The notes under the pieces are model-generated. The model did no database searches. It saw nothing but the letters and a program-made list of their open reading frames with translations, and was not told the DNA's origin. From contig CAVQFA010000001.1 of assembly GCA_963711735.1 (NCBI GenBank), forward strand, positions 1 through 47,606: a stretch of DNA of 47,606 nt, given 5' to 3'. A program made the translations under genes and the position numbers. Numbering within the stretch: position 1 is the first letter of the stretch; the number at the start of each line of letters is the position of its first letter. Shown piece by piece: positions 1 to 47,606 of this stretch. The stretch comes from Candidatus Gottesmanbacteria bacterium. GTDB lineage: Bacteria > Patescibacteriota > Microgenomatia > UBA10105 > UBA927.

Positions 1-863
1 TATTCAAGTAAGGGAGAAGATGTCGAATCAACACCAACCACAGAGACTCCCAAACAAACAACGACAACAAACAGTCTCTTCTCCCCGACGGAGTCACGGT
101 TGGGTTTGTCGGCAGGATCAAACGGTTCGGAGGACTCACCGGGAAGGGGGTACAGCCAATCCACGCGGTAATTGCCAGAAAAGGCCAGATGGTTGCCATT
201 GCCTCCGCAGACCCATCCAAGGGAACAGTCAGGGTGAACGGAGTGGAAGCAAGACGCCGGTGGAATACTTCTGTCAGCAGGTGACATAGTGGAGATCGGG
301 GATTTGACATTTGCAGTCACAGAGAAGAACGGTGCGATAGGGTTTACGGATGACGAGGGGTACCCCTGTTCGCGTGAAAGGAAATACAAATTATCAGGCA
401 GATACGGCAGAGAGAGCACCAGCGTACGCAGGCATTGCCGCAGGACTCGGGCACGTGCGATCGGCGCAGGCATGGGTGCCGCAGCAGGGGTTTGGTTAGG
501 CGGATTTCCTACTGTTATCGGCATTGTCATCGGACAACTCCCCGCAGTGTATAACCGGACATACCGTTCCTCTTATGCTCTGGCAGCAAACCCGCAATGC
601 TCCAAAACTCCGTTGTTGAGTGCTGATATATTTACAACCGAACCGACAGGTTCCATGGGGGAGAGGCAGAGACTCTTCGAGATTATAGAACCAGCAAAGG
701 CGGAAGACAGCCCATCCGAACAGAGACAGAGGCTCCGCACCAGTAGTACCCGTCAAGCCGGCGTCTGAATCTGCGGTAGCTTCTACAGTTACGACACCCC
801 TACCAAAAGATATCACTTTACGTAAAGGGATCGATTATGAATTAACAGAAAAATTATCCGGCG
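1..863 (+). pseudogene. Decayed upstream part of the left-arm kinase gene, cut by the window edge. It holds a degenerate FHA-like/TM module copy, a linker and the kinase Gly-rich loop.
   Basis: nt 30-635 align with 2443-3046, the intact module inside the 1158-aa ORF. The upstream copy carries at least six single-nt indels, mostly in short homopolymers, so the frame hops between the 20-289 ORF, the 289-768 ORF and a third frame. nt ~780-893 encode ..TPLPKDITLRKGIDYELTEKLSGGGGRDAAVFK, matching the N-terminus of the right-arm kinase ORF. One extra A in tttaaaaggg (887-896) separates this from the 864-4340 frame. Confidence 0.5.
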
Positions 864-3800
864 GTGGAGGTCGTGACGCCGCTGTATTTAAAAGGGATTT
901 ATAACGGGAAAACAGTTGCAATAAAAGTGTTTCCAAATAATAGACAATATGGTCCGGACAGGGGAATGGAATATAGTATTTTGATATCTTCAAAAGGAGT
1001 TTTATATCCACAACCGATCGCACAAATTCAAATAGTGGATCCTTTGGGAAATGAATACCCTGCGTATGTCATGGAATATATTGACGGACAAACACTCGGT
1101 TTATATAAAGGAACCCTACCTGATGCTGTTATTCAGAATGCTTTAAGTAAATTACAGAACCAAATTGACAGAGGATTGAAAAGGGGTGATATAAAAACTG
1201 ACAATATTATTGTTGTTCAAGACGCAAACGGAAAAGCAACCGGGATAAGATTAATCGATCCTTTACCAATGGCTGCTGACGCCAAAGACCCGGTAGGTAC
1301 ATTACGGGGGATATTAGAAAACTATGCAGAACCTGCAAGAACAATTCAGGAAGAACAAACTGTTAAAAAATCAACTACCAAAACAACTGAAGCTACTACT
1401 AAGACGATTACACAAGAGCCGGTGAAAACAAACGCTCGTTTAATAGCACTTCCGAAATGGATGCAGAATATAAAATCAACCCAATTGGCAAAAAGTATTC
1501 TGAATGTTTTGGACAAAGGAATAGCACTTGGCCACAAAACATGGTATTCGCGCATACTCAACGCAACTCCCATAGGATTTGACAGACCGGAAGCAGTGGG
1601 TATAGGTCAAAATATATTTGAAACTACGGCTTGGTATGTCACCCGACTTTCGCCAATTGTGCCTATATTTATTCGAATACCGCTTCTGGTCTATGATGCC
1701 GCACGGTTTGCACGTACTGCCTATATCCAGCCTGAACTTGTTACACCAATGCTCGTGAGAGGCGCTCTCGCAGGAATTATCAGTGTTGTCGGCGGAATGG
1801 TTATAGCGCCACTGATTGCCCCTGTACTTCTTCCTGCCGGAAATTTGATCAAGATGGTTCAACAATTTCTCGGACCGGGAAATGCATTTATATATAATTT
1901 AACAAATCTTTTGTTCAGCATAACGAACCCTAAAAACGTTGTAACTTTCTTAGCATTTACAACGATATTTCAGTTCCATCCGCTCGCCGGAATATCACAG
2001 GCAATCATTAACCGTCTGCCGGCTGTTATTCCCGTTACCCGTACTGCAAAACCGGAGTCCCGTCCTGTTTCAGGATCCTTACTTTCCAACGTATGGAATA
2101 ATATCTCCACCCGGTTCTCCGGACAATTTACGTCATCCGTTCAGCAACAGGTCCATGACTACTTTTTCGGCGACGAGATAGACGCGGAACTGGAGGCATG
2201 GAGAACGCAAACCGGTCGTCAGGTGCCAAAGCTGGACGGGAATGGCAATCAAATCGGTACGGAGACGGAAGATCAATTTGCATCACGGAGAAGAGAGTAT
2301 AAGGATGCAATGGACGTATGGTATGACGCACCGGACGATGTCAAAGTGAATATTGTAAAAGCTCATTTTTCCAATGTTACGGATCCAAAGTTGGATACCT
2401 ACATCCGTGAAGCGATCGAAGATCAGGATAAAGGAGAGACAACACAAACCACAACGGAACCCAAACAAACAACGACGAACAAACAGTCTCTTCTCCCCGA
2501 CGGAGTCACGGTTGAGTTTGTCGGCAGTAGCAAACGGTTCGGAGGACTTACCGGGAAGGGGATACGGCCAATCCACGCGGTAATTGCCAGAAAAGGCCAG
2601 ATGGTTGCCATTGCCTCCGCAGACCCATCCAAGGGAGCAGTCAGGGTGAACGGAGTGGAAGCAGACGCCGGTGGAATACTTCTGTCAGCAGGTGACATAG
2701 TGGAGATCGGGGATTTGACACTTGCAGTCACAGAGAAGAACGGTGCGATAGGGTTTACGGATGACGAGGGTACCCCTGTTCGCGTGAAAGGGAATACAAA
2801 TTATCAGGCAGATACGGCAGAGAGAGCAGCAGCGTACGCAGGCATTGCCGCAGGACTTCGGGCACGTGCAATCGGCGCAGGCATGGGTGCCGCAGCAGGG
2901 GTTTGGTTAGGCGGACTTCCTACTGTTATCGGCATTGTCATCGGACAACTCCCCGCAGTGTATAACCGGACATCCGTTCCTCTTATGCTCTGGCAGCAAA
3001 CCCGCAATGCTCCCAAAACTCCGTTGTTTAGTGCTGATATATTCACGGCGCCAATTGTTACCGAAGTAAATCAGTCTGCCCCGATTCCGGCAGGGAACGA
3101 AGAAACCTCAAGAAGTATATCAGAGACAAAGCAGGTTCCGAGCGACATGCAAATAGTTTCAGAGATACCTGTACAAACTGAAGCAGAACAGCAAAAGTAC
3201 TCAATTCTACAACTTATGTTCCAATCAGTTAGTGATTGGTTAACAAGTGACGATAATGTGGAAAAAGGTTTTGGAAACGGGCAGGCTTTTACGATGACAA
3301 ACATGTTCTACCGTACCTTAGCACAAAATGCCATTGATGCATTTAATAGAGCGCTGGGAAGACCTGAATATTCTCTCGATACACCTATGTCTGAATTAGG
3401 TCAGACAGCATTGACCGTATTAGAAACTCTATTTACCAAGGACGGGATTGTGTTTTTCGGTGAAAAAAACACTATAGAGTTTGATCATCCGCAAAAATTT
3501 ATAACTGATCTCTTTTCCGCACAAAAATTGTTCTACAACAGTAAGGGTGTGCGTGTTTCAGTTGAGGAATATATTCAGGATCGATATAAAAATCTGATCA
3601 ACAGAGGTATGAGTATACAACTTCAGGATTTAGATCCTGAAGTTGTTCTTGAAAAAGTTCGTAATGGAACCTCGTGGGCTGACGCAGAATTTCGAATCCG
3701 TTATCCGGACAGGTATAAGGACTTTCTAAATTCGATGAATTTAGATGAATCCACGATACAAATTCTAAAAGAACAGGGTATACAAATAAGCACCATTGTC

Positions 3801-4340: not shown

Positions 4341-4361
4341 CTTCAGATATCAACCGAACAA

Positions 4362-18510: not shown

Positions 18511-18547
18511 ATTAAGAAAAAAACAATAAAAGAAAGAAGAAAGTTAC

Positions 18548-20257: not shown

Positions 20258-20413
20258 ACACCCGTATGCTAGGGGATTTGTACCGCGCAATCAAGGGGAA
20301 CCACATACAACACCAAAACACACCTACTCCCGATTACCTGCCGGTTGGCGGATGCAAAGTGGTGCAGGAATGATATACTCATTGTGCACTGAAGTGCAAC
20401 TTCGTTGAATGAG

Positions 20414-20480
20414 TATAGACCCATCTAATCAGATTTTTCGCTTATGAAAGCTGCAAATCTGAGTAAGATGGGTATATATA
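20414..20480. repeat. Hairpin element, family member A. The arms resemble those of the palindrome-axis element.
   Basis: Sequence: tatagacccatctaatcagattt-loop-aaatctgagtaagatgggtatatata. It is the mirror of copy C (26808-26874). It lies in the divergent spacer between the 580-aa gene and the 534-aa homologue, next to a second hairpin (atactcatt 20375-20383 / aatgagtat 20408-20416). Confidence 0.7.
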
Positions 20481-20490
20481 CTTGGGATAT

Positions 20491-22090: not shown

Positions 22091-22099
22091 GATTTGCGT

Positions 22100-23502: not shown

Positions 23503-23539
23503 AAAGATACAAAGTTGATCTATTTTATGATTGACCTGC

Positions 23540-23742
23540 ATTATTTACAATCCTTCAGAAGACTGATATGAATGCCGAAAAACTACCCGTATGATAGTTT
23601 TCCGGTATATACCGATCTTACTTGGATTTGCCTCCGCCTGAAAAGGCGGAGAAAAATCTAATTAGATCGGTATATACCGGAAAACTATCATACGGGTAGT
23701 TTTTCGGCATTCATATCAGTCTTCTGAAGGATTGTAAATAAT
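23540..23742. repeat. Palindrome axis: perfect 79-nt inverted arms (23540-23618 and 23664-23742), a 45-nt spacer, and a nested hairpin CTCCGCC-tgaaaa-GGCGGAG (23632-23651).
   Basis: Direct reading shows attatttacaatccttcagaagactgatatgaatgccgaaaaactacccgtatgatagttttccggtatataccgatct and its exact reverse complement. The symmetry centre is 23641/23642. Confidence 0.95.
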
Positions 23743-25201: not shown

Positions 25202-26797
25202 TTATTTCCTCATTGCCACACGCATAGTTCCATTCACCTTCCGGGTTATGTATCCCATCTCTCCCAACTCATTTGCCCTTGTCATCCACGATGGTATAAC
25301 AACAAACCGTACATTGTATTTATCAAGTATCTTTTTGCGTACTTGTACATCCTGTGTCCAGTAGAACAGGTCCATATCTTTTGCTTTTTGCGGACTATTA
25401 TACGTGAATGTCGGATGACCGGCTAATGTTTTACATGATGTGAAAGCAGGAATCATCGTAGAAACATCCATCGGAGCAATTACCATGTCGTTTACTCTGC
25501 AAACGCCACTCAGGTACTGTATGCTGTCCATGGTATCCCGGGGAACCAGGATAAGAGGGTTGGTCATATTTTTTCTCACATACACATTCTGCCTGGCGAC
25601 ACTTGCAACAAACGAGGGAAGCGAAAAAGCCGCGAGTGTTGCACATGCTAATAGTATGAATACCTGTTTGCGCATGCTTTTTTGCAGATAAGATCCGGTT
25701 TCCCACAAGGCAAGTGTGGTAAGAATTGCCGCAGGGATATATCCTCCTCCCTGCAGATATCTGCCGTTGGAAAGGGGCAATACTTTTGTAAGTATTGCAA
25801 GTCCGATAAACGGAACTGCATACCATCCGGCTATGATATTCCACAATAATTCTTTTTTCCTGATGGCAAACCAAATACCGGGAATTGCAAGTATTCCCGC
25901 TATTCCGAGAACTTTCAAATACCCAAGTGCATCAATCGGATACTGTTGAAATTGTTCCCAATCCCTGAAAGCGGTCCATGGAAATATGCTGTTCTGTACG
26001 GCGTAAAGGAGAATAAACGGGACACCGGAAATTGCCAAAAATACAATTACTCCGATTAATAGTTTCACTACATGTTTCCTTACGAAGTTAATTTTTTGAA
26101 TGAAGGTTATGGTCATTCCGAGTACCGTCGCGGCAAGAAATATGATTGCGGATGCCGGATTTACCCATACGGTGACAGCCATAATAAGTCCCGCGAAGAT
26201 CAAATACCGGTAGTTTTGCCGAACCAAACCCAGAGAGAAAACTATAATACTCCCGATTGCGGATGCCAGTGCAAATGTATGATGCGGAAGCCACGTGATC
26301 CTGAGTATCGGATCAAATCCCGTCCAGAATTCCCCCGCCTGACTTAAAATGCCGTTTGTGAGAAACCAAAACGGTGTTGAGAGAATGACAAGCGCAAACG
26401 CACATATTCTCTGCCGTAGGGATAATGTAAGGATTTGAAGGAGCATATATGTTATGAGAAATACCGCTACCCCACCGAAAACCCGGAGAATTGTAAACGT
26501 CAGAGGAAGAGAAAATCCGGGTGTGTGTGCAAGCATTCCGGCTACGGAAAAAAATGTGTTAACAAACTGGGGTGAAAAAATTTCCGGAGTGTAGCGGGAA
26601 GTAAGAAGAATATTTCCCTCCCACCCCTGTCTCATAAGGGACAAATACCAGTAGTAGTCTGCTTCGAAGTTATGGACTAAAGGATACACGAAACCAACGG
26701 GTGTAACTTTTATATATAAGAGTGTCTGGTAAAGGCTGGCAACAGATACGACGAGAGATACGCAAAAAACAATTATAAAGTCTTTATTTAATTTCAT
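25202..26797 (-). CDS. Polytopic membrane protein (about 531 aa from the ATG), intact copy; possibly GT-C-like.
   Basis: Uninterrupted ORF with the ATG at 26797 (MKLNKDFIIVF); the track uses the TTG at 26806. About 12 hydrophobic segments are followed by a soluble C-terminal ~130 aa. The left-arm counterpart is a pseudogene. Confidence 0.8.
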   Translation of the reverse strand: MKLNKDFIIVFCVSLVVSVASLYQTLLYIKVTPVGFVYPLVHNFEADYYWYLSLMRQGWEGNILLTSRYTPEIFSPQFVNTFFSVAGMLAHTPGFSLPLTFTILRVFGGVAVFLITYMLLQILTLSLRQRICAFALVILSTPFWFLTNGILSQAGEFWTGFDPILRITWLPHHTFALASAIGSIIVFSLGLVRQNYRYLIFAGLIMAVTVWVNPASAIIFLAATVLGMTITFIQKINFVRKHVVKLLIGVIVFLAISGVPFILLYAVQNSIFPWTAFRDWEQFQQYPIDALGYLKVLGIAGILAIPGIWFAIRKKELLWNIIAGWYAVPFIGLAILTKVLPLSNGRYLQGGGYIPAAILTTLALWETGSYLQKSMRKQVFILLACATLAAFSLPSFVASVARQNVYVRKNMTNPLILVPRDTMDSIQYLSGVCRVNDMVIAPMDVSTMIPAFTSCKTLAGHPTFTYNSPQKAKDMDLFYWTQDVQVRKKILDKYNVRFVVIPSWMTRANELGEMGYITRKVNGTMRVAMRK

Positions 26798-26807
26798 ATA
26801 TCCCAAG

Positions 26808-26874: not shown

Positions 26875-27030
26875 CTCATTAGAGCGATGTTGCACTTCAG
26901 TGCACAATGAGTATATCATTCCCGCACCACTTTGCATCCGCCAACCGGCAGAAGATCGGGGGAGGTGTGTTTTGGTGTTGTATGTAGTTCCTCTTGATTG
27001 CGCGGTACAAATCCCCTAGCATACGGGTGT

Positions 27031-28742
27031 ATGAAGCGGATCGTAAACGGAAATATTTTTGCGAAAGTTGCCATAGTCCTTATTGTTGCAGCGAGAATCC
27101 ATACCGCGCTCATCCGGTATTTTGATAATGACGAGTTTTCCCATATGCACTGGGTATGGCTTATGGCGAATGGGAAAATTCCGTACCGCGACTTTTTTTT
27201 CTACATAACTCCGTTTTTCCAGTGGATACAAATTCCCATTTTTCTCCTTCCGCCGGGAGGGTATGTACTCCTTATCGCCCGTTTGTCCCAGCTTGTCACA
27301 TACCTTGCCGTTACATTTCTCATCTACATGCTTTCCAAAAAATTTGCAGACAAAACAACCGCCATACTTGCTGCCGTAATTTTTCTCACCTTCCCTATGA
27401 CATTTGACAAAACCATAGACATTCGACCGGATACCCTCATGATGCTCCTCTACCTCATTCCTGTATATTTAGCCATAAACAGCAAACCCCTCACACCGTT
27501 TCTTCTCGTGCTGGGAGGAGCAAGCATATCGCTTGGGTTTCTCATGTTACCGAAAATTCTTTTTGCGATCCCTGCACTTTTATACCTTTTTATGCTGACA
27601 AAACAGATACTGCGGCCGAAAAATATCGCTCTGTTTCTGTTAGGCGCTCTCATACCCGCTATCATTCTGATTGTGTATCTTGTCTCTCATGGTATTATGC
27701 AGGATGCATTCTATGCAATTACACGCGATTCCGTTGCGGTGAATGCCGGAAAATCACCGTTTTCTCCGTGGAAAGCACTCTCCCCGTGGCCTCTTGTTTA
27801 TATGGCCGGGGGTGGTCCGAGCCTGCCGTGGTATGTAAATACCGGCATATGGATAACCGCTCTTGCCGGTTTAATTCTCTACTTTATAAAAAAACCCGCA
27901 TACGGTGTGTTTCTTCCTCCTTTATTTCGCAGCCGGTATCCTATTTCTCTTTCTTTTCCCTGCTCCGTATCTGCAGTATTTCTTTCCGCTTTCCGTGTTT
28001 GCCTCATTTCTTTCCGCATACTTATATATATACTGTATCCGCGCATTGGTACGTCTCGCGGGTTCACTCCATGTTCCGAAGCTCGGAAAAGTGATCGTTG
28101 TCCTGTGTTACGGAGTACTTGCTCTCCTTTTGGGTACATCGTTTACCCAACAGTACCTACTCCGGTATCTCCGGGAATGGCAAATACCGAACAGATGAGT
28201 GTCATTTCGGATTTGCCCATGATACGAAGTGATGAGCCTGTTTATGATATGGTCGGTTCCTACGTATTCCGTCCCGACGGGTATTTCATCTGCTGCCATC
28301 CGTACCAGGAATTTGTCGATCATCTTTCCAAAAAAGTTCCGACGCTCCGCGAATCACTTGTTGCTACAAAAACGAAATTCATCAATACTTGACAGGACCG
28401 GTATGTCCCTCTGGCAACCGACGTCAGGCAGACCTCGATTTTTTGAAAAAAAACTACCTGCCTTCTGCTAAAAACTGGAAAATCTATCCGCTCGGGGTTA
28501 AATTCCTGTGTTACAACGGGTCATGCTTCCGGGCAGACGCCGACAACAGGGTACTCGGTGATACAACCGCAACACTGACAATCCCGATAGGAGAAACATT
28601 TACCCTGGTAACTGTTCCGCAGGGCAACACTGTCACTATTGACGGGAAGATGTATTCCCAAAAAGTTCCGCTCTCCGCGGGAACCTATTCTTTTACTGTT
28701 CCTCACACCATTTCGGAATTCACCCTCAAACTAATCCGCTAA
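27031..28742 (+). pseudogene. Frameshifted copy of the 580-aa ArnT/PMT-like GT-C gene.
   Basis: Homology to 18548-20257 leaves the main frame at ~27905 (the correct residues FFLLYFAAGILFLFLFPAPYLQYFF.. appear in ORF 27905-28198) and returns at ~28165. It is lost again at ~28385 (TKFINT-stop against TKFIILDRTGMSLWQP) and resumes in ORF 28389-28742. Confidence 0.7.
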
Positions 28743-31337: not shown

Positions 31338-31424
31338 TGCCGGAATCGATTTACAATTTAAGGTTTAATAATCGTAAATCATTACATATGTTCTCTCTTT
31401 ACTCCCGACCTTCTTTTTGTCACA

Positions 31425-36362: not shown

Positions 36363-39300
36363 TTATATATATATTAAAGATAAGTGAGACGTGTTTACCG
36401 GCTGTTCCTGAGTATACGTATCAGATACAATCGGCACTGAAGGATCGTAAGTCGTTGCTTCATCCGCAAATATGTGAGTTCTTTCAGGGAAAAAAGGTTC
36501 AACTTCGATGAAACGTGTAGATATTCGGGTTTGTATTTTATCTAAGGTTTGTGTTTTACTTTCATTACCGATATACCGTTTCAGAATTTCCAACAGGTCA
36601 AGGCGAAATCCCGGCTGCCTATCCGGCTCGATAAATCCTATACCGTTCCCCGTATCAATACTGATCTTCCTTAAACTCACTATCTCCTTGGGTCGTGCTC
36701 CTATTGCCCGCAGATGGATAATCCCCTTTTTATCATAGGGATTGAAATACTGGAGATAGTGCGGAATAAAACTCAATGGTGTTTCTTTGTTCGCAAGTGT
36801 TGTATAGATTTTCTGCATCTGTCTTAAAAATACCACCGGTGCTAACTCCTCAAACGCTTTGTCAAAAACCAGGGAATCGGATTCGGCAAGCGACATCCGC
36901 ACATACGCGGAACCTACGATCATTGAATATTCTTTCTCGCTCATTGACGACAGGTATACATCGTTAATTCTTTGTAGTGCATCCGTAACGGACGCGGCAT
37001 CTTTTTCGTCAAATATGTCACCTGGTAATGCTATATAGATTTCAGAGTTGCGGACATATGTAAATAATTGAAGAAAATCACCGTCCTTACCGATAAATTT
37101 CTGTCGGATATGAGGCGGTATTGCTGAGAGTATCCGCTTAAAAAAATGCTGCTTAAATATATTTCCTGCTGCATATGACGTGTAATTTTCGCTTTTCATA
37201 ATTATCGGAATATCGGCTTTCACGAGGTACACAGTACCATTACCGTTTTTATTTCTGACATTAGCCTCAAAATTTTTTCTGTCCCTGTATACTGCTACAG
37301 GCAGAAATCCGGTAGTCTCGTCGTTGTTAGGAAGGAGAGTTTCAAGCATTGCGGGTAATAGCACAGGATCGTAATAAAGATCCTCAAAAAGGCTGATGTA
37401 CTTTGCACGATCCTCATCGTTATACTGGTCTAGGATTGTAACGTCGAGATATTCTGCAAGCGCAGGTTGGACTTTTTTCAGAAATGTTATCCTGTCATCT
37501 AGTGTTAATTGACTATTGGCGATTATGGTCTGTACGTTTAAAAACTCAAGTGGGTTGGCTATATCAAAATGTATTTTTGCAGGACGTATTTCGACACGTT
37601 CTTTTCCTTCCGCGTCAATGCTGAAATAAGGTAATTTGATTGCTTCCACGCTGTCAGTCATACTGCCAACAAGTTCATTCAGTAATGCGTCAGTTAGCAC
37701 CGTCTCGTTGTCTACGGAAAATGTGAGTGCTATAAGCCCCTCATCTCCTGTCGTATGATGCAGTTCAATCGGATACTTCGGGTGCTTTGCATTGAAAGCA
37801 TCAACCGCATTCTGTATGGCACCAAATACGGCATGAAGACCGTAGTCGCCCATAAGGTTGGGAATTACGGTCTTTACACCGTTTAAACCGGATAAGTACT
37901 GCATATCAAAACGGAGAGCAACGGATATAGTTTTCTGTGCCCGTTTGATGATGTACCTTCCCGGACCAAAAACAAGCCTGCTTCGTGAATACTTGCTGTA
38001 TAATCCGTTGAGAAAATCCTGAACTTGCGAGCGTGATAATTTATTGCCGGTAAATTGATCGTACATCCCGATATCGGCGTCTCTCCCGTCAAACGCAGGA
38101 AGGACTTTGACCATAATACCGTTATACTGCTGTTGTCCAAGCTCCATAAGGAGACTGCGTTTCAGCTCTTCAGGTCCTTTGAGAACCAGGTTTTCATCTA
38201 AAAGCACTTTCTCTGTCTCCTGAATGATTGTGTCAATCGAAGGCATCTCAGGGAGTGTGAGATTCTGCACTTCATCCTCAGCAGGCGCCGGCGGTTCGGT
38301 TGAACCGTCAGAGTTAAGGCGCCCCGGCGTTTCCCGTGAGCCGGCCGGCACCTGCAGGAGTGTCTCTACTGCTATGTTGTTTCGTATCTGTCCGAGTCCC
38401 GCTTCGAAAAATCCGGTAATCATGTTTATAATTCGGATAAATAGATTCTGTTGAGGTTGAGCTGGTGAAACGGCATTAACCGGTGTAATTTTATATATAC
38501 TGAGAAAATTCAGGATATCAAAAACCAGTGCGTTTGATTTTTCGATATTTACGAGCTGTTCCTCAATGGATACTTCCCCTCTTCTCACCCCGTCATTAAC
38601 GGCTTTTATTTCCTGTGCCCGCTTCTCAAATTCTTCAGGGAAAGGAACTTTCAGTGTAACCCTTAGTATCTCAAATGCTGAAATAAAGGTGTCTTTGGGA
38701 GTAGGACGAAGTTTGTTGGAGTTGTAAAACTCAAAATATTGGGTTTCCAGTGTGCCGGTCGTGTCTATGCTTCTCAGCTCTCCGACAACCGCATCTTCCC
38801 ATTGTTTCCTTTCCGCTTGGGTGGAAAAGGTATCTTCTATGATAAATCCCAATAGGTACTGGATAAACGGACGCACAATCATCTCGATATTATTTACACT
38901 CTTATTGTTTCGTACTATCGATTTCTCAAGCGCACGTACATCTTTTTCACTTATGTTCTGCTCTGCGGTGGTTCGGATTCTTTGCCCGCTTAACGTAAGA
39001 ATTTTCCGGAAGAAAACCATTCTGTCAGCTTCTTTTGTAATATCCAAACCTTCTTTTGCTTGTTGCATGGTATTGCGGACATTTGATACAACCTCTGCTG
39101 TAGGTTGATTAGCGGTAGATTGGGATAACGGTGGAAGTATTTCCTTTACATATTGCGTTCCCGTCGTGATCGTCTGGTACCCATGAGATTCTGCATATTT
39201 TGACGTAAATCCACCGGTAGAATTCCCGTCAAGTATAAGCCGTAACATGCGTATATCAGAAGGATACATATCCGGGTATTTGCGCGTTTCGGCAAGAAGT

Positions 39301-42300
39301 TGACTTGCAAGCGTTTCGGAATACTCCATGAGCGCCGTTGCTATTCCTTGTTCCCTATATGCATCAACCCGGACATCTGCTGATACAAAAATGACTGTAT
39401 CTATGTCTGCACCAATCCGGTTGGCTATGTTTTCTACATTCTGATTTCCGCGGGTAAATTCAATATCAATATATCCGATACGTTTATCGTTTGCGTCGTT
39501 TACAGTTACCCGCGTGATGTATCCGTCTTTTTGGTTGATTGTTGTTAATTTTGAAAAAACAGGAAGAGCTCCTTCCAGATTTACCTGGAATGTCCCCTCT
39601 CCGATGGTTAGAGGGACGGAATTTCGGATATTCAAACCGTCATTTGTTTGTTCAAACACAGTTAAATCAGAGGGAATACGTGAAGTAATTTGGGCGGGTA
39701 AATTTTTCGTCTGTTGATTTTGTTGAGACTGTTGTGGACGAAATGCCGGAACTAATCCACTCAATCTATTTCGTACTGCATCAAACAGTACTGGAAGTGT
39801 CCCACGGGTACGGGTGTCCGCCCACCACTTGTAAACAGTTGCGTTTGCCAGGTCCTCAAACCACTGTGCCGGTCCGGAACCGATAAGACCGGATGTTTGA
39901 GATTTCTTCCCGTCTGTTTGTATTTCCTGAGGATTAAAAAATATTGAAGAATTTATCTTCCCGGTTGATCGGATGAAAAATTTTATAAAACCTGATACCT
40001 GATTGGGTATCGGAGTACCTTTCAGCTGTTGCCTCTCTTTAACATAATTAACCCTTATCGTCTCTATGGAACCAGCCAATCGTTGAAGAAGCGGTGTTAC
40101 GGATACAGGCTGTTCTTCAGCAACTGTAGTTTTTTTAAATCCGGTTATAAATTGGCGGACAAGTCTGGATAATCTGTTATTTTTTAACGCTTCATACACA
40201 AATCCGAGTCCCCCGAATCCCGTGAAGAAAGATGTGTCTGTGCGTCTTGAAATATCTCCGGATGTCCTTATAGTTGGTACAAAAACGTATTGTTGGCGGT
40301 TCACAAAATACCGTATCCGTGAACCGGGATTTGCATCCAATCCGTAATGAAATCCAAACCATGCGCTTTGCCCGGCAAATGTCGATCGGCCTGCCTGCGC
40401 TATAGCCGGATAATAGACACCGTCCCTCGTCTCTCCTTCACCGGGAATCACCATTGCAATATGTCCCGGTACTCCGGTAAATCTGGCGGATGCAACGACA
40501 GGTAAACCTTGGTTTGCGAGGTTTTGCGCTTCCTCCGGAGTTATCTCTGTCCATCCGACATCAGCACCCCGTCCTGCAACCCACCCGGATTGCTCCATCC
40601 CCTCACCGCTTAACCAATCCGCTATCCAGTTTGCATTTGTTTTTGATACTTCATAATTTCCTCTATCCGTGTTATACATTGGCGCATATCGGGGTATCTC
40701 TACCCTCAAAGCCTGTGTCACGTCCCAGACAAATACATTACAGTACGTTTGATCAATAATGGTATTTCCGTACGCGTCCGTCGTGGTAATCGGTTGATAC
40801 CGCTCTGACTGGGTTACATTAAAGTACTGTATTGTTGATAAATAATTATCAGCAGTCCTTACATATCCTGTTGCCGGTAATACTGCAGGATCCACAGGCA
40901 ACCACTCGTCATGAGAAGTAAGAACAATACCCCCATCCCTTGATATTTCGTACTGTGCAAACCCGTCGTACGGGCTTGCAACATCCATAGTGTATGCAAT
41001 GGTTGTCGTTGATGATTGGGTTTCAGGTTGTAAAGTCTCTGCGTTTGCCTGTATTGTGGTCCCGGAACCGGGATTTGAAGGACTTATCCCTAACTCCCGG
41101 AGGCGTGCTTCGACTCTCCCGCGGAAATACGTCATGAATTCCGTACCGGGATCCGGTTTGCCTCTGTCTACCGTCTGTCCGCTTTCGTTTACATATGTAT
41201 CACGTTCATTATGCCCGTAAATTTGGTCGACCGGTATATTGTATTGCACCATCGTGCTTATTACCCCGTCTACGGCTAATGCTACCTCTGTCTCCGGTAC
41301 GTTCGTGGTGTCATTTGCGGCAGTAAAATCACTTCCGGCAAGTTCATAATTTATTGCTCCGGGTTGGCCGAACGCGCCGTAAGATTCGGCTACCTGGGTT
41401 TCGTACATCGGAAGAAATTGCACTATACCGTCGGGTCCTACACCAAAATGCGCATTTGTTGATCGCGTCTCTAACACTATATTTCCATCCGGCTGAAGTG
41501 TTTCACGCTCCGCAACACCCGATAAACCGTTATATGTGGTATTTGAATTCCATCCGGACGGATCTCCGCTCTGACCGTCCCAATGTATGATTATCTCTGT
41601 CGGAGTTACCCGGGTACCCTCATTCGGAAGTTCCCTGTATCTCGGAGCAAAAAGGAGTGTGTCACCGGTCTGAGCCGGCTGCATTTGTTCAGGTAAACCG
41701 GTGACATGCTGCACTGATATATTTTCTTCTGCGTTTCCCGCCGGAGGTATAACATCATTCTCCAAATCCTGTTCCTGGACGGCTGGTGGCAGTGTTTGTA
41801 CGATTTCATCTTCCTGTTGGTTTTGGATATCTTCCCCGAATGTATATTCCTCAGGTACTTGTTCAAAATTTCTCTCAAAGAATTCCTCGGGTGTCTCCGT
41901 CGTAAGAACCTGTGCAATCGGAGCAATATCCCGGGGAGGAAGGTTCAGAATTGGTACAAAAAACGTATTGTATGCAAATATTCCGATCGCAAAGAGAGAG
42001 GCTACTCCGGCGCCGCTTAATATCGCCAATGGTTTTGATATACGTTGTCTTCCCTGCTTATTTGTCTCTACAGGTTTTTGTGCTTCTTTAACGGGATATA
42101 ATTCCGCTCTCCAGCTTGTTCTGCCATCACCGTAGGAAAATTCCAATAAATATATCGGGTTTTTGTCATCTGTTTTCACTGCCCGGACATAGAGGTTCGT
42201 CTCATTCTGTCTTGTTTTCGGAAGGGCGCCTTTTGGCACAACCGTACCATCACTTTTCACCATATACCAACCGGTATTTCCGCTCTTGGGTCGGACACCA

Positions 42301-45300
42301 CCGTCTGCAGAAATGCCCTTCACCGTATCAAGAGTGTACTGATTCCCTCCGATTTGAACCGTAACCTTCCCGATTGCAGTTTTAACTATCTGAGGAACAT
42401 CCGATGCTGCAAGGTGTGCAAAATTGAGAATGTCCGTTATAACTCCCGGATTATGTATTGTTCCTGATACGACATTGCCCAGTCGTGTAATTGCCTCATC
42501 GAGTAAATAGAGAGACCAGTCTGTCTCCGGTTTGCGCACGCGTGATGACATGGATGTGCGGTATGACGAAAGGGTCTTTATGTACTCCTGTGCGGAAATC
42601 GTTTGAAGAAGGGCGTTACGGACGTTGGTGAGGAAGCTAGAAGAAAAAATACCACGCTTGGAAACAATGGACGGATCCATAAGCTCTTTTACTCTCCCCC
42701 ACGTATCCCATCCCCGGTTTTCATCCGCTGCTTTTATATGTGCCTGAATGATGGCATCAACAACACCGATTCGTCCCTGCGTTTTATCTCCTGCGATCCA
42801 TGTGTGGATTTCCCTCTGAATTTGTATTGCCTGTGTTGCGGCGTACTCCCGAACTACTCTGCCTGCTTCTGAATCGGATTGTATTTGTATGGAACTCTGG
42901 CTATTTAACTGATTAAGCATAGCCTCTGCAATAATCCGGGTAAATGTATCGGTGAAATCAGCAGAGCTTGCAGGATCGGCACTCTTAAATGACGCAAGCA
43001 TATCGGCGACACCCGCATCCATCCTGAGTGATATGATATTTTGTGTTTGAGTAAAAAGTGTATCCAACTCCTGTGGATTCGGTCCGCGCTGAGGGAGGAC
43101 CTGGTTTTCCTGTGTTTTAGACGGTGAAGAAAGGAATATATGAAGCTGGCCCTGATCTGAAAGGTCTTTTGTGCTGTCCGGCGGGGATTCAACATGAATG
43201 ACAACTCCGTTGCTCGTAATATCAACGCTGATATCACCGATATACGGTGTGTCACCTTTATCCGGTATTTCCTGTGTCCTTGATCCTTCTTTAACCTGAA
43301 TGGGTTTGCCGGTTTTATTCACGAGATGCCACCCGCGGTTTCGTTCATAATACCACTCGATATCTCCAAGCAGCCGTGTATGAACGAGCGTCTTTCCGTA
43401 TCGGTCTGTGCCGGAAGACCCTATGATAACCGGACTTTCGTTTCTCTCCGGATGAGTTTCAAGAGTATACCGGTTACGCGTTCCGCGCGTCCTGTAGGTC
43501 CTTCCCTCACCCATCACGATCCCGCGGGTTGTCGGATAGAGGTTTCGTTCGTTTGTTGTTTCGTATGCAGTTATCTCGGGATTCGGATTAAATCCCGGAG
43601 GGAATGGTGATGTCACTTGTCTTGAAAGAATTCCGTCCAATGTTTCCGGAATTGTCAGAAGATGTATATTCGTACCAATTTCAAATGTCCCCGGTTTATC
43701 CGTATCACTCCGGATGAATGCTCCGCCGTTTAACCTGCGTACGATGCTGAAAATGAAAACCGGATTGGTCCTGAGTGTTTCTTTAAGCGCATCTGCTGTG
43801 GATTTGGGAAGTGCAAATGCCGTGTAATATACGCCTGTTCGTTGTTCTAATTGTCCGTACATCCGAACCGCTACGAGAACATCTCCTCCGGTGTTAATAC
43901 CCATGGTGTTTCTTTCAGCTGAACTGAGGGGTATAAATGAAACCGATGTATGGTCATTTCCCTCTTTATCCATTCCTGTCTTCCCTTCGATGTTTCTTTT
44001 CCCGCCAAGGAATTGATCATTAATTCTTATGTTTCCGCTGAACGTATACCCTCTGTTATTTCTGCTTGTAACCATGTACCCATTGTTCGGAATCTTCTCC
44101 ACCCATGGGTCAGTCTCTGTTTCATTTACCCATAAAACACCTGATTCAGGCGTTCCTTTGTTGGTAGTTGGAATATTTCCGGATACATTTTCACTTCCTT
44201 CCGGTATAACAGGTTTTACATTCGGAGCTTCCGCAGGATATTGAACTGCCTGTCCCAGAAGGTCATCTGTCACGGCATCGATGAGCACCTCCCATTCATC
44301 ATCAGAAAGGAAGATTTCTTCTTTCGTCTTGGTATTGGTAAACGTTATGTTTTCGGTGATTGCAGCATCTACTTTGTCCCGTATGATCTGCCGCACGTCA
44401 GCATCAGTTTTTCCTTCCTGTGCTGCCTTTACCCCCTCAGAGAGAATTGCCGGAAGGAGAGGCTGTATCTGTGTATCAAACTGCTTCCGGATACCACCGC
44501 TTTGAAGAGAGGCTAACCGGATGCCCTCAGAAAACAGCTGATCACCACGCATCATTCTGACGATCTGAGGCGTGATAAACCTGTCATACGACACATAGGA
44601 CAGAAAAGAAGTAAACGCGCCTCCGAACACAGGTGTGGTATTGAGTGTGAAACCTCCCAATATTGTCCCCAGAACCAAGGGTGTCGGAATGATGACCTTT
44701 TTCAATTTTGTCATCCAGTACAGAGTTGCAATTTGACTCTTTGTTGATGTCTGGAGCGTGTCATCACCATGGAATGGTTGTGCTTCTATGACATCTTTTC
44801 CGTTTTGTTTCGTCTGTACGGGGTATGTCAGGACGAGTACTCTGGCCTGCATTCTCTGCACTGTGAGGGGGATATTTTGTTTGCTCCCGATGATAACGGT
44901 ATCTCCCTCAGAGAGGGCTGTGTGTGTAGAGAGAAGCACGGGGTTTGTGGTTCCTGATTTTACGAGGTATACCGGCGCGGTCTTTCCCCGTGCAGGTGCA
45001 ATTCCGACGATGTCACCGGATGCGGCATCGTACGCGACAATGGCATGGACAACATCAAGACCACTCAGATCTACGGTTGATTTGCGTGAATTTCCGACGA
45101 GCTCGTAGCGTAACATGTCTGTGGCAGCTTCATTTGCTGGTTTTTGGACAGGCGTTTTTGCTTCCTCCTCTGTTGCTGCCGGCTTTTGGGAAGCATCATT
45201 GAGTGCGGGACCTGTTAATGATTCTGCCGGACGGGTAATGGTGATGCGGGCCGGCAGACGGTTAATGATTGCCTGTGATATTCCGGCAAGCGGATGGAAC

Positions 45301-45641
45301 TGAAATATCGTGGTAAATGCTAAGAAAGTTACAACGTTTTTAGGGTTCGTTATGCTGAATAAAAGATTTGTTAATTTATATATAAATGCATTTCCCGATC
45401 CGAGGAATTGTTGAACCATCTTTATCAAATTTCCGGCAGGAAGAAGTACAGGGGCAATCAGTGGCGCTATAACCATTCCGCCGACAACACTGATAATACC
45501 TGCGAGAGCGCCTCTCACGAGCATTGGTGCAACAAGTTCAGGCTGGATATAGGCAGTACGTGCAAACCGTGCGGCATCATAGACCAGAAGCGGTATTCGA
45601 ATAAATATTGGTACAATTGGCGAAGTCGGGTGACATACCAA
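36363..45641 (-). CDS. Giant multi-domain membrane protein (3092 codons as drawn). N to C: hydrophobic block, FHA-like module, TM, long unassigned region, TM, Amidase_2-like domain, papain-like Cys/His domain, GNAT-like segment, degenerate GGDEF-like segment, conserved tail.
   Basis: 9.3-kb uninterrupted ORF. The first residues after the nominal start (SPIVPIFIRIPLLVYDAARFA..) are internal residues of the left-arm 1158-aa protein. The real 5' end is therefore probably the kinase ORF 45515-46510, separated by a 1-nt T-run difference at ~45623. The FHA-like stretch MLRYELVGNSRKSTVDLSGLDVVHAIVAY..LSEGDTVIIG lies at ~44847-45116. A TM (ILSGAGVASLFAIGIFAY) lies at ~41930-42040. Confidence 0.8.
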   Translation of the reverse strand: MVCHPTSPIVPIFIRIPLLVYDAARFARTAYIQPELVAPMLVRGALAGIISVVGGMVIAPLIAPVLLPAGNLIKMVQQFLGSGNAFIYKLTNLLFSITNPKNVVTFLAFTTIFQFHPLAGISQAIINRLPARITITRPAESLTGPALNDASQKPAATEEEAKTPVQKPANEAATDMLRYELVGNSRKSTVDLSGLDVVHAIVAYDAASGDIVGIAPARGKTAPVYLVKSGTTNPVLLSTHTALSEGDTVIIGSKQNIPLTVQRMQARVLVLTYPVQTKQNGKDVIEAQPFHGDDTLQTSTKSQIATLYWMTKLKKVIIPTPLVLGTILGGFTLNTTPVFGGAFTSFLSYVSYDRFITPQIVRMMRGDQLFSEGIRLASLQSGGIRKQFDTQIQPLLPAILSEGVKAAQEGKTDADVRQIIRDKVDAAITENITFTNTKTKEEIFLSDDEWEVLIDAVTDDLLGQAVQYPAEAPNVKPVIPEGSENVSGNIPTTNKGTPESGVLWVNETETDPWVEKIPNNGYMVTSRNNRGYTFSGNIRINDQFLGGKRNIEGKTGMDKEGNDHTSVSFIPLSSAERNTMGINTGGDVLVAVRMYGQLEQRTGVYYTAFALPKSTADALKETLRTNPVFIFSIVRRLNGGAFIRSDTDKPGTFEIGTNIHLLTIPETLDGILSRQVTSPFPPGFNPNPEITAYETTNERNLYPTTRGIVMGEGRTYRTRGTRNRYTLETHPERNESPVIIGSSGTDRYGKTLVHTRLLGDIEWYYERNRGWHLVNKTGKPIQVKEGSRTQEIPDKGDTPYIGDISVDITSNGVVIHVESPPDSTKDLSDQGQLHIFLSSPSKTQENQVLPQRGPNPQELDTLFTQTQNIISLRMDAGVADMLASFKSADPASSADFTDTFTRIIAEAMLNQLNSQSSIQIQSDSEAGRVVREYAATQAIQIQREIHTWIAGDKTQGRIGVVDAIIQAHIKAADENRGWDTWGRVKELMDPSIVSKRGIFSSSFLTNVRNALLQTISAQEYIKTLSSYRTSMSSRVRKPETDWSLYLLDEAITRLGNVVSGTIHNPGVITDILNFAHLAASDVPQIVKTAIGKVTVQIGGNQYTLDTVKGISADGGVRPKSGNTGWYMVKSDGTVVPKGALPKTRQNETNLYVRAVKTDDKNPIYLLEFSYGDGRTSWRAELYPVKEAQKPVETNKQGRQRISKPLAILSGAGVASLFAIGIFAYNTFFVPILNLPPRDIAPIAQVLTTETPEEFFERNFEQVPEEYTFGEDIQNQQEDEIVQTLPPAVQEQDLENDVIPPAGNAEENISVQHVTGLPEQMQPAQTGDTLLFAPRYRELPNEGTRVTPTEIIIHWDGQSGDPSGWNSNTTYNGLSGVAERETLQPDGNIVLETRSTNAHFGVGPDGIVQFLPMYETQVAESYGAFGQPGAINYELAGSDFTAANDTTNVPETEVALAVDGVISTMVQYNIPVDQIYGHNERDTYVNESGQTVDRGKPDPGTEFMTYFRGRVEARLRELGISPSNPGSGTTIQANAETLQPETQSSTTTIAYTMDVASPYDGFAQYEISRDGGIVLTSHDEWLPVDPAVLPATGYVRTADNYLSTIQYFNVTQSERYQPITTTDAYGNTIIDQTYCNVFVWDVTQALRVEIPRYAPMYNTDRGNYEVSKTNANWIADWLSGEGMEQSGWVAGRGADVGWTEITPEEAQNLANQGLPVVASARFTGVPGHIAMVIPGEGETRDGVYYPAIAQAGRSTFAGQSAWFGFHYGLDANPGSRIRYFVNRQQYVFVPTIRTSGDISRRTDTSFFTGFGGLGFVYEALKNNRLSRLVRQFITGFKKTTVAEEQPVSVTPLLQRLAGSIETIRVNYVKERQQLKGTPIPNQVSGFIKFFIRSTGKINSSIFFNPQEIQTDGKKSQTSGLIGSGPAQWFEDLANATVYKWWADTRTRGTLPVLFDAVRNRLSGLVPAFRPQQSQQNQQTKNLPAQITSRIPSDLTVFEQTNDGLNIRNSVPLTIGEGTFQVNLEGALPVFSKLTTINQKDGYITRVTVNDANDKRIGYIDIEFTRGNQNVENIANRIGADIDTVIFVSADVRVDAYREQGIATALMEYSETLASQLLAETRKYPDMYPSDIRMLRLILDGNSTGGFTSKYAESHGYQTITTGTQYVKEILPPLSQSTANQPTAEVVSNVRNTMQQAKEGLDITKEADRMVFFRKILTLSGQRIRTTAEQNISEKDVRALEKSIVRNNKSVNNIEMIVRPFIQYLLGFIIEDTFSTQAERKQWEDAVVGELRSIDTTGTLETQYFEFYNSNKLRPTPKDTFISAFEILRVTLKVPFPEEFEKRAQEIKAVNDGVRRGEVSIEEQLVNIEKSNALVFDILNFLSIYKITPVNAVSPAQPQQNLFIRIINMITGFFEAGLGQIRNNIAVETLLQVPAGSRETPGRLNSDGSTEPPAPAEDEVQNLTLPEMPSIDTIIQETEKVLLDENLVLKGPEELKRSLLMELGQQQYNGIMVKVLPAFDGRDADIGMYDQFTGNKLSRSQVQDFLNGLYSKYSRSRLVFGPGRYIIKRAQKTISVALRFDMQYLSGLNGVKTVIPNLMGDYGLHAVFGAIQNAVDAFNAKHPKYPIELHHTTGDEGLIALTFSVDNETVLTDALLNELVGSMTDSVEAIKLPYFSIDAEGKERVEIRPAKIHFDIANPLEFLNVQTIIANSQLTLDDRITFLKKVQPALAEYLDVTILDQYNDEDRAKYISLFEDLYYDPVLLPAMLETLLPNNDETTGFLPVAVYRDRKNFEANVRNKNGNGTVYLVKADIPIIMKSENYTSYAAGNIFKQHFFKRILSAIPPHIRQKFIGKDGDFLQLFTYVRNSEIYIALPGDIFDEKDAASVTDALQRINDVYLSSMSEKEYSMIVGSAYVRMSLAESDSLVFDKAFEELAPVVFLRQMQKIYTTLANKETPLSFIPHYLQYFNPYDKKGIIHLRAIGARPKEIVSLRKISIDTGNGIGFIEPDRQPGFRLDLLEILKRYIGNESKTQTLDKIQTRISTRFIEVEPFFPERTHIFADEATTYDPSVPIVSDTYTQEQPVNTSHLSLIYI
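40330..40790 (-). other. Papain-like Cys/His hydrolase domain (NlpC/P60- or CHAP-type) within the giant ORF.
   Basis: QTYCNVFVWDV carries the candidate nucleophile Cys (codon at 40740-40742). FTGVPGHIAMVIPGEG carries the candidate His (~40463-40465). The Cys-then-His order and the ~90-residue spacing fit this fold. Confidence 0.45.
41125..41605 (-). other. N-acetylmuramoyl-L-alanine amidase (Amidase_2/PGRP-type)-like domain within the giant ORF.
   Basis: The motifs occur in family order: TEIIIHWDG (first His), NAHFGVGPDGIVQF, GAINYELAG, VDQIYGHNERD (second His) and DRGKPDPGTEF (K-x-DPG). Confidence 0.6.
44241..45196. repeat. Intact copy of a ~955-nt direct repeat (right-arm FHA-like/TM module). 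The degenerate copy is at 46652-47606.
   Basis: Both copies start ttgaactgcctgtcccaga.. and run collinearly to ..gctgccggcttttgggaa at 45196 and at the window end. They differ by point changes and small indels. Confidence 0.85.
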
Positions 45642-46510
45642 GCCGTAGTTTCAAATATATTTTGACCTATACTCACTGCTTCCGGCCTGTCAAATCCTAT
45701 GGGAGTTGCGTTGAGGATGCGTGAATACCATGTTTTGTGGCCAAGTGCAATTCCTTTGTCCAAAACATTCAGAATACTTTTTGTCAATTGGGTCGCTGCA
45801 ATATTCTGCATCCACTTAGGAAGTGTAATTGTACGGGTGCTTGTTTTCCCTGTCTCCCCTGCTGTCGTCTGAGTAGTAGTTTTAACAGGTTGAGTAGTTG
45901 ATTTTTCAGTCACTTGTTTCACCGGAGCTGTCTTTGCAGCTTCTGCGTAGTTTTCTAATATACCCCGCAACGTGCCTACCGGATCTTTGGCGTCAGCAGC
46001 CATTGGTAATGGATCAATTAATCTTATCCCTGTTGCTTTTCCGTATGCGTCTTGAACAACAATAATATTGTCAGTTTTTATATCACCCCTTTTCAATCCT
46101 CTGTCAATTTGGTTCTGTAATTTACTTAAAGCATCCTGAATAACAGCATCAGGTAGGGTTCCTTTATATAAACCGAGTGTTTGTCCGTCAATATATTCCA
46201 TGACATATGCAGGGTATTCATTTCCCAAAGGATCCACTATTTGAATTTGTGCGATCGGTTGTGGATATAAAACTCCTTTTGAAGATATCAAAATACTATA
46301 TTCCATTCCTCTGTCCGGACCATATTGTCTATTATTGGGAAACACTTTTATTGCAACTGTCTTTCCTTGGTATATTCCTTTAAATACCGCAGCATTTCTA
46401 CCTCCGCCTCCGGATAGTTTCGCTGTTAATTCGTAATCAATCCCTTTATGTAGTGGGATATCTTTTGGCAGAGGTGTCGTAACAGTAGATGCTACCGGAG
46501 ATTCAGACAC
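45515..46510 (-). CDS. Protein-kinase-like domain ORF (331 codons as drawn), probably the 5' part of the giant gene.
   Basis: It carries SGGGGRNAAVFKG (Gly-rich loop), VAIKVF, YVMEYIDG, RGDIKTDNIIV and IRLIDP. It is collinear with left-arm 864-1650 up to ..ETTAWYVTRL and then leaves frame: cccgacttcgcc here against cccgactttcgcc in the left arm. The GTG start is nominal, because the frame stays open upstream into the decayed module copy. Confidence 0.65.
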   Translation of the reverse strand: MSESPVASTVTTPLPKDIPLHKGIDYELTAKLSGGGGRNAAVFKGIYQGKTVAIKVFPNNRQYGPDRGMEYSILISSKGVLYPQPIAQIQIVDPLGNEYPAYVMEYIDGQTLGLYKGTLPDAVIQDALSKLQNQIDRGLKRGDIKTDNIIVVQDAYGKATGIRLIDPLPMAADAKDPVGTLRGILENYAEAAKTAPVKQVTEKSTTQPVKTTTQTTAGETGKTSTRTITLPKWMQNIAATQLTKSILNVLDKGIALGHKTWYSRILNATPIGFDRPEAVSIGQNIFETTAWYVTRLRQLYQYLFEYRFWSMMPHGLHVLPISSLNLLHQCS

Positions 46511-46651
46511 CGGCTTGGTAGGTACTTCTGGTGCAGCTTCTGTTTCTGTTTGGATGCGTTCGTTTTCTGCCTTTGTTACATCTGTGGTTTGTAGAGTCTC
46601 CGCCTCCGATGAAGTCGTTGGCTTTGTTTCTTCTGTTGTTGCTGCAGCGGG

Positions 46652-47606
46652 TTGAACTGCCTGTCCCAGAGGTCATCTGTCACGGCATCGATGAGCACCT
46701 CCCATTCATCATCAGAAAGGAACATTCTTCTTTCGTCTTGGTATTGGTAAACGTTATGTTTTCGGTGATTGCAGCATCTACTTTGTCCCGTATGATCTGC
46801 CGCACGTCAGCATCAGTTTTTCCTTCCTGTGCTGCCTTTACCCCCTCAGAGAGAATTGCCGGAAGGAGAGGCTGTATCTGTGTATCAAACTGCTTCCGGA
46901 TACCACCGCTTTGAAGAGAGGCTAACCGGATGCCCTCAGAAAACAGCTGATCACCACGCATCATTCTGACGATCTGAGGCGTGATAAACCTGTCATACGA
47001 CACATAGGACAGAAAAGAAGTAAACGCGCCTCCGAACACAAAGTGTGTGGTATCTAAGTGTGAAACCTCCCAATATTGTCCCCAGAACCAAGGGTGTCGG
47101 AATGATGACCTTTTTCAATTTTGTCATCCAGTACAGAGTTGCAATTTGACTCTTTGTTGATGTCTGGAGCGTGTCATCACCATGGAATGGTTGTGCTTCT
47201 ATGACATCTTTTCCGTTTTGTTTCGTCTGTACGGGGTATGTCAGGACGAGTACTCCGCCCGTATTTCTCTGCACTGTGAGGGGGATATTTTGTTTGCTCC
47301 CGATGATAACGGTATCTCCCTCAGAGAGGGCTGTGTGTGTAGAGAGAAGCACGGGGTTTGTGGTTCCTGATTTTACGAGGTATACCGGCGTGGTCTTTCC
47401 CCGTGCAGGTGCAATTCCGACGATGTCACCGGATGCGGCATCGTACGCGACAATGGCATGGACAACATCAAGACCACTCAGATCTACGGTTGATTTGCGT
47501 GAATTTCCGACGAGCTCGTAGCGTAACATGTCTGTGGCAGCTTCATTTGCTGGTTTTTGGACAGGCGTTTTTGCTTCCTCCTCTGTTGCTGCCGGCTTTT
47601 GGGAAA
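46652..47606 (-). pseudogene. Decayed second copy of the right-arm FHA-like/TM module, upstream of the kinase domain and cut by the window edge.
   Basis: ORFs 46993-47529 and 46680-47039 encode residues almost identical to aa ~176-450 of the 3092-aa ORF, but in two frames with further 1-nt indels near 46670 and 46715. If those indels are ignored, the frame runs ..LGQAVQPAAATTEETKP..EAAPEVPTKPVSESPVAST straight into the kinase ORF. Confidence 0.5.

Follow-up and report, generated by a model that had tools for sequence, protein, structure and literature searches.

At each of its two ends, the contig studied here carries what would be the 5' portion of a gene for a giant membrane protein, and one module of this gene recurs, approximately 2.41 kb upstream, as a second and young copy. 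The upstream copies, termed A' in the left arm and B' in the right arm of a diverged palindrome, appear to be real paralogous DNA and putative non-functional relics, situated directly before a Thr/Glu-rich linker and a kinase-like domain. We propose that A' and B' are the relics of a young duplication or conversion in each arm and are genuinely decaying, a proposal that we consider about evenly balanced between being right and wrong. Such relics would probably be ordinary duplication relics in an unusual orphan gene, and the event itself would be of a known kind.

The window, namely the whole stretch of DNA analyzed (47,606 nt), is the entire contig. A diverged palindrome spans it from 1 to 47606 with an arm identity of 88-97% (Table 1). 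Its centre, at approximately 23632-23651, is a tight hairpin (CTCCGCCT-GAAA-AGGCGGAG; 8-bp stem and 4-nt loop), and the homology between the arms reaches directly to the hairpin stem. A fold-back assembly chimera of two strains was considered as the origin of the palindrome and judged unlikely, because the arm homology continues up to the stem and loop. The eight inter-arm gene pairs yielded dS of 0.17-0.37 and dN/dS of 0.05-0.29, and the transition/transversion ratio between the arms ranged from 1.6 to 2.3; the two arms have truly evolved apart. In Gottesmanbacteria-like MAGs (the relatives L005 and L038), the order of genes from one arm was present only once, and the order in common comprises a PMT_2-type membrane glycosyltransferase, other large membrane proteins, and an NPCBM protein. 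The source is therefore a CPR bacterium of the Gottesmanbacteria-like group. The outermost parts of the contig, beyond the block shared between the arms, are arm-specific.

Several features of the contig interior were recorded on their own account. Duplicated genes decay in a complementary fashion between the arms, and the breaks are mostly dense 1-nt indels (see p580, p534, and p470 in Table 1). Apart from one island of 173 nt, the versions of the giant gene in the two arms differ completely over its central 5.4 kb. By eye, the right version of this region bears amidase-like and NlpC/CHAP-like motifs and the left version an HEIDH motif. In the left giant "gene", an in-frame stop interrupts the reading at 4338-4340, and the frame changes near 6073-6128. 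A 115-nt indel separates the arms at 15795-15927 (left) and 31370-31387 (right), in the intergenic region between divergent genes for 644-aa and 546-aa proteins. A related MAG (L013, 14768-21823, minus strand) possesses another giant ORF (2351+ aa) at the syntenic site, after a homologue of the 854-aa protein. The L013 ORF and the giant proteins of the window have only a 197-aa GNAT-like segment in common (58% identity), and the giant genes at this site therefore appear to be highly mosaic. Neither tRNA genes nor Rfam families at the gathering score were found across the whole window.

Table 1. Coordinates of the repeats, the blocks around them, and the paired features of the two palindrome arms
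Feature	Position	Strand	Remarks
A', left upstream copy (beta-domain + TM-helix module)	29..635	+	frame-broken
Left junction of A' and Thr/Glu-rich linker	636..662	+	frame 0 (A') to frame 2 (linker)
Left shared block	663..2051	+	Thr/Glu-rich linker, kinase-like domain, Thr-rich linker, hydrophobic TM block
Left arm-specific acidic spacer, TM block to module A	2052..2439	+	outside repeat
A, left downstream copy	2440..3046	+	intact within ORF 864-4340
B, right downstream copy	44241..45196	-	intact within ORF 36363-45641 (3092 aa)
Right shared linker/kinase-like/TM block	45222..46606	-	
B', right upstream copy	46652..47606	-	frame-broken, three net frame changes
A+C-rich tract, Thr/Gln/Lys/Asn linker	22..86, twin 2428-2493	+	5' edge of left repeat
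A+C-rich linker tract	46617..46654	-	exactly at junction after B'
A+C-rich linker tract	39689-39738		inner edge of arm-specific region, boundary 39718
Inter-arm shared block	663-2051 paired with 46606-45222		1.39 kb, 89.6% identity
Arm-specific stretches	2051-7460 vs 39718-45222		differ between arms
Inter-arm island	5156-5328 paired with 39933-39761		173 nt, 93% identity
Main arm pairing	7460-23639 vs 39718-23644		88-93.5% identity
580-aa PMT_2-like protein (p580)	18548-20290 vs 26998-28742		intact left, broken right
534-aa membrane protein (p534)	25202-26806 vs 20482-22090		intact right, broken left
470-aa membrane protein (p470)	23780-25192 vs 22100-23541		intact right, broken left

An earlier note on this DNA had described one repeat per arm, and both were confirmed. 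In the right arm, 46652-47606 repeats 44241-45196; the local alignment of 46652-47605 with 44241-45192 contained 943 identical positions, 6 substitutions, and 8 gap columns (approximately five events), and the repeat extends to the final base of the contig. The frame of B' is shifted by a complex change of +4 at 47040-47056, restored by a -1 at 46725, and shifted again by a -1 at 46670; after the last shift, the final 18 nt of the homology (encoding GQAVQ) enter the frame of the linker and the kinase-like domain. A multi-nucleotide replacement at 47256-47264 is in frame (MQAR to NTGG). The left repeat, which had been placed at 30-635 and 2443-3046, was recovered as 29-635 and 2440-3046, with 584 of the 607 positions identical, 20 substitutions, and six 1-nt indels. 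Six of the 20 substitutions are crowded at 35-48, and positions 1-28 bear no clear homology to 2412-2439. The indels of A' (66 -1, 251 +1, 357 +1, 447 -1, 563 +1, and 602 -1) form three compensating pairs, after which the copy is out of frame with the linker at 636-662. Additional frameshifts were detected past the end of the repeat, at 679/709, 735-736, and 890 (A3 to A4) of the left shared block, where they affect the linker and the N-lobe of the kinase-like domain. The earlier note had read both upstream copies in frame into the kinase once the indels were ignored. This reading stands without further assumptions for the right arm only; in the left arm, the junction shift at 636-662 and the three further sites outside the repeat have to be ignored as well.

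The same architectural order, namely module, kinase-like block, TM block, and module, was found in both arms as had been claimed, and so was the contrast between indel-rich upstream and intact downstream copies: A' and B' switch frame repeatedly, whereas A and B sit inside long ORFs. Runs of 300 nt that are exact or near-exact rule out chance as the source of the repeats. The two copies are spaced by 2411 nt in the left and right arms alike, and the periods after frameshift correction are 804 codons in the right arm and approximately 802-803 in the left. The homology between the copies stops 28-46 nt before the linker shared between the arms starts. A' and B' each meet a unique junction, with no k-mer-length sequence in common with the downstream flank of A or B. 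At either limit, no more than 28 nt of the contig remain beyond the outer edge of A' or B'; we ascribe the stops at both ends to assemblers breaking in such repeats.

The two repeat families had been regarded as unrelated to each other. At the DNA level this is correct, as no DNA similarity was found between the A and B families, and the arm-against-arm comparison gave no BLASTP match between them. The protein cores of the two modules, on the other hand, align weakly but colinearly (27% identity over 81 aa, E 0.12) and bear a TM motif at the same offset (PTVIGIVIG in A and PLVLGTILG in B). Thus, the A and B cassettes are probably remote homologues despite their unrelated DNA. Common ancestry of the architecture, to which this alignment points weakly, is the sole lead for the identical spacing of 2411 nt. 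Homology of the left spacer (2052-2439) to the C-terminal part of module B, which would yield equal spacing by permutation, was unsupported (E 0.64).

Both labels given to the domains fall below the profile thresholds. Pkinase (PF00069) matched the kinase-like domain at 14.3 bits against a gathering cut-off of 31.7 (E 0.026), and nearly all of its phmmer matches in PDB were kinase or pseudokinase chains at E values of 0.32 or above. The motifs GGGGRNAAVF, TVAIKVF, and RGDIKTDNII can be read in the right ORF 45515-46510, while the equivalent of DFG is LIDP and the C-lobe is not evident. Thus, the label "kinase" agrees with the reading of motifs (GGGGR, VAIK, and DIKTDN) but not with the profile score. 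Module A comprises a beta-rich domain and one predicted TM helix. It matched FHA (PF00498) at 12.6 bits against a cut-off of 20.7 (E 0.19) and Yop-YscD_cpl (PF16697) at 15.6 bits against a cut-off of 33.2 (E 0.02), and module B had no Pfam match even at E values up to 10; the label "FHA-like" thus has a sub-threshold profile match in module A and none in module B. The phosphothreonine-binding residues of FHA domains are Gly-Arg, Ser-x-x-His, and Asn-Gly. By eye, PIHAVI, VRVNG, and LSAGDIVEIGD of module A resemble FHA motifs, and the Gly-Arg and the Ser before His were not seen. The single-sequence AlphaFold2 model of module A contained beta strands (mean pLDDT 46.7) and was too weak for a fold search; that of the kinase-like domain (pLDDT 40.8) was unusable.

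The age of the copies was assessed from synonymous divergence, as the earlier note had suggested. The dS value between the copies was 0.023 for A/A' and 0.004 for B/B', far below the values between the arms, and on this comparison the intra-arm copies are 10-50 times younger than the split of the arms. It follows that the making of the copies, or their last homogenisation, took place in the two arms independently and later than the divergence of the cassettes. This agrees with the two options offered before, independent duplication after the divergence of the cassettes or concerted evolution. As is expected of segmental or tandem duplication, each arm has two direct copies whose identity exceeds chance (584/607 and 943/952-954 identical), and, as is expected of concerted evolution, the copies within an arm are far more alike than anything between the arms, the cassettes being unalignable across them. 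The dN/dS ratios between the copies were 1.56 and 1.62, and on these small counts omega = 0.25 was rejected (p = 2e-4) but omega = 1 was not; the differences between the copies look neutral, without purifying selection. Outside the cluster at 35-48, the substitutions between A and A' are 10 transitions and 4 transversions, resembling the ratio between the arms. Indels and substitutions number approximately 6 to 14-20 in A' and approximately 4 to 3-7 in B'. The disruption of the frame relative to an intact paralogue (six sites in A' and three in B') together with relaxed selection would be the pattern of pseudogenes, provided that the disruptions are carried by the DNA molecules themselves.

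We next consider how the upstream copies relate to the frames that follow them. In the right arm, the kinase-like frame stays open between 46668 and 45625, and one frameshift at 45624 (TTT to TT) alone parts the right kinase-like ORF from the 3092-aa ORF. The latter (9.3 kb) contains no interruption at all, yet a start codon belonging to it is not evident downstream of B'. Reading toward the right kinase-like domain, the first in-frame start is the GTG at 46510, which is not a conserved start because the left arm reads GCG. In both arms, the stretch leading from the upstream copy to the kinase-like domain was found to hold neither a conserved start codon nor a promoter-like site, and this absence is compatible with an ORF that would formerly have been longer. 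If translation comes from upstream, a dead upstream region is hard to square with an intact ORF of 9.3 kb, unless the inactivation happened very recently or the indels are errors. The well-defined genes of the contig, with starts at 31425, 15757, 31337, 15960, 23780, and 18441, all lack a Shine-Dalgarno-like motif in the preceding 25 nt, and we therefore rejected the absence of such a motif as evidence on starts. Recoding of stop codons that would rescue the shifted frames was also rejected, as TAA, TAG, and TGA are all present in them.

Alternatively, A' and B' may each be the 3' portion of a separate paralogous neighbour gene, most of which would lie off the end of the contig. The main frames of A' (frame 0) and B' (frame 2) differ from the linker/kinase-like frame that follows, even when compensating pairs are allowed for, and the main frame of B' runs into a stop at 46578. 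Nevertheless, neither A' nor B' is an intact reading frame, the homology ends short of the shared linker, the last 18 nt of the right copy (GQAVQ) are already in the kinase frame, and the start of the kinase-like ORF is not conserved between the arms. Altogether, we hold separate genes to be very improbable.

The most serious rival is error in sequencing or in the consensus at the contig ends. In this reading, the repeats themselves exist, whereas poor coverage of the ends would have introduced most of the indels, and perhaps many of the substitutions, as mistakes in the consensus; the upstream module would be intact and in frame, and a longer ORF would run through module, linker, kinase-like domain, TM block, and module. 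Frameshifts are approximately 50 times denser in the terminal 900 nt or so of both ends than in the rest of the giant genes, being packed in the first 890 nt on the left and the last 936 nt on the right (p = 8e-10 and 2e-4), and the left zone ignores the boundary of the repeat and runs on into the linker and the kinase N-lobe. The high share of indels and of complex, clustered changes, especially in B', points in the same direction, as do the isolated homopolymer frameshifts at 45624 (T3 to T2) and 890 (A3 to A4), which break otherwise conserved and open kinase-like/TM coding sequence, and the lack of a conserved start in the stretch that leads from the upstream copy to the kinase-like domain. 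Against error, approximately 38 kb of long ORFs in the contig are free of any frameshift, and the overall accuracy of the contig is thus high. The substitutions between the copies also lack the purifying selection expected of a functional in-frame repeat, and the broken genes of the interior behave as real redundant duplicates with an intact partner in the other arm.

A third copy of module A bears directly on this rival. Using phmmer, we compared 1.84 billion representative proteins with a 727-aa query that spans the kinase-like domain, TM block, spacer, and module A, and only the two ORFs of the window itself and one further protein, P0003 (85 aa), matched. P0003 is a third variant of module A in this exhaustive search, frameshifted differently from the others, and is encoded not in the window but on a separate contig of 567,027 nt (NCBI/ENA). 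P0003 and A' have in common the +A frameshift at 563 (NRT-YRSS) and G at 618, and P0003 has the state of A at 419, 505, and 602. The +A at 563 is absent from A despite an identical sequence context, and is therefore an inherited mutation and not a random or context-driven error. The relationship of the three copies is tree-like, ((A', P0003), A), and at least part of the decay of A' is therefore genuine inherited mutation; among the data at hand, P0003 is the best evidence that A' is truly degenerate. The remaining frameshifts of A' are private, without a counterpart in P0003. P0003 in turn has a private pair of compensating frameshifts, one member of which falls at 447/2857, where A' has a -1, so that the two copies were hit in opposite directions at the same site. 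The private indels of both copies and the opposite changes at 447/2857 agree with error, whereas the +A at 563, common to A' and the independent P0003 but not to A, speaks against it. On balance, we rate error as the source of most indels as possible but doubtful.

Other searches returned little. Exact-protein look-ups for four proteins of the window or related to it gave no record, and the pattern back-translated from the P0003 core had no match in genome_contigs. The kinase-like ORF matched only fragments of kinases from unrelated bacteria (25-37% identity) in genome_contigs, metagenome_contigs, and viral_contigs. The word-indexed homologue searches returned only the left ORF of the window or nothing and, as they missed self-hits, these are weak negatives. 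The giant protein family thus appears to be an orphan in the data searched.

Another possibility is that A' and B' arose in assembly, by the misattachment of strain variants of module A or B, or of reads from the internal copies, before the kinase-like block; the order of module, kinase, TM block, and module would then be absent from any single molecule. Both copies are at the termini of a contig that is already structurally odd as a diverged palindrome of 47.6 kb, their offset of 2411 nt is equal in the two arms as if set by a ruler, and another variant of module A exists on a separate contig. On the other hand, the sequences of A' and B' differ from those of A and B, each upstream copy is joined to a unique junction, a symmetric misjoin would be needed in both arms with unrelated sequences, and the arms show genuine evolutionary divergence. 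We therefore regard a misassembly as improbable.

Returning to the proposal that A' and B' are decaying relics, we suggest the following course of events. The upstream copies would have arisen, or would last have been made alike by gene conversion, in each arm separately and at a time when the arms had long been divergent. Unequal or homeologous recombination, or gene conversion, probably acted at the A+C-rich, low-complexity DNA encoding the Thr/Gln/Lys/Glu linkers that bound the modules; such tracts lie at the edges of the blocks (Table 1), and we therefore infer that the linkers are the recombination substrates for shuffling and duplication of modules. All of the indels would be genuine, and the upstream copy would formerly have been part of the same ORF. 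The redundant duplicates of the interior, p580, p534, and p470, show a similar decay by dense 1-nt indels, and one partner is always intact. The identical spacing of 2411 nt and the pairing of compensating indels are not explained by this course of events.

The above findings can be compared with known systems. Diversity-generating retroelements were rejected, since the substitutions have no adenine bias and are of all types, mostly transitions; no reverse transcriptase domain was found in the large ORFs scanned. Loci that vary by silent cassettes are known in Neisseria (pilE/pilS), Borrelia (vlsE), and Mycoplasma genitalium (MgPar). By analogy, the upstream copies and the third copy might be silent donor cassettes from which gene conversion varies a giant surface protein. 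Like such loci, at least three copies of module A exist, of which one lies in an open gene and the others are startless and partial, and comparison of the arms, and of genomes, shows the giant gene to be strongly mosaic. Unlike them, the copies here are barely diverged, differing at only 1-3% of sites and thus having little diversity to donate; they are frameshifted, and the frameshifts would be transferred along with any diversity; and the upstream copy runs on into the linker and kinase-like domain of its own gene, which is the behaviour of a relic of duplication. We consider donor cassettes extremely improbable. In a broader version, to which we likewise attach very little probability, the relics and the copy on the 567-kb contig would form a silent cassette bank in a CPR bacterium, recombining with whichever module of its giant envelope protein is expressed, and the spacing of 2411 nt would reflect a conserved, recombination-prone unit of module, kinase, TM, and module kept alike in each gene by ongoing conversion. 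If true, such a bank would be a variation system in an episymbiotic lineage without a known example.

The arrangement also resembles the error-rich or over-extended ends of metagenome contigs in that both features lie in the last 900 nt or so with approximately 50 times the usual density of frameshifts, but differs from them in that one frameshift and one substitution are corroborated by P0003 and in that the substitutions are biased to transitions. If the indels were errors, the gene would be longer than annotated, with an internal repeat flanking the kinase-like domain, and frameshift-rich contig ends should not be taken for pseudogenes. As regards the domains, membrane modules combining Ser/Thr kinases with FHA domains are known, as is the YscD-type FHA-like domain followed by a TM helix. 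The gene studied here is similar to the former in its G-rich loop, VAIK, DIKTDN, and Thr-rich linkers, and module A is similar to the latter, as its best, weak matches are Yop-YscD_cpl and FHA and a TM helix follows; in contrast to both, all Pfam matches here are below threshold and module B has none.

Concerted evolution of intragenic repeats by conversion or unequal crossing-over is known in repeat-containing surface proteins of bacteria. The present repeats are alike in their dS of 0.004-0.023 within the arms against approximately 0.2 between them and in the low-complexity linkers at the edges; conversion should have erased the indels as well, yet the upstream copies are rich in them. The closest likeness is to partial (segmental) gene duplication, with direct copies 2.4 kb apart at 97-99% identity and one of them intact, and to decaying paralogous fragments, the other copy being frameshifted with a neutral pattern of substitutions. 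Unlike an ordinary segmental duplication, the same layout recurs in both arms of a palindrome, in cassettes unrelated at the DNA level and with an equal spacing of 2411 nt, and the contig ends before the outer junction of the duplication is reached. Should the decay prove genuine, the two ends of this contig would represent recent and parallel duplication or conversion of a module in an orphan giant gene of a CPR bacterium, of which two diverged copies are present, with the breakpoints at low-complexity DNA encoding linkers, and thus a small example of how giant mosaic genes are rebuilt.
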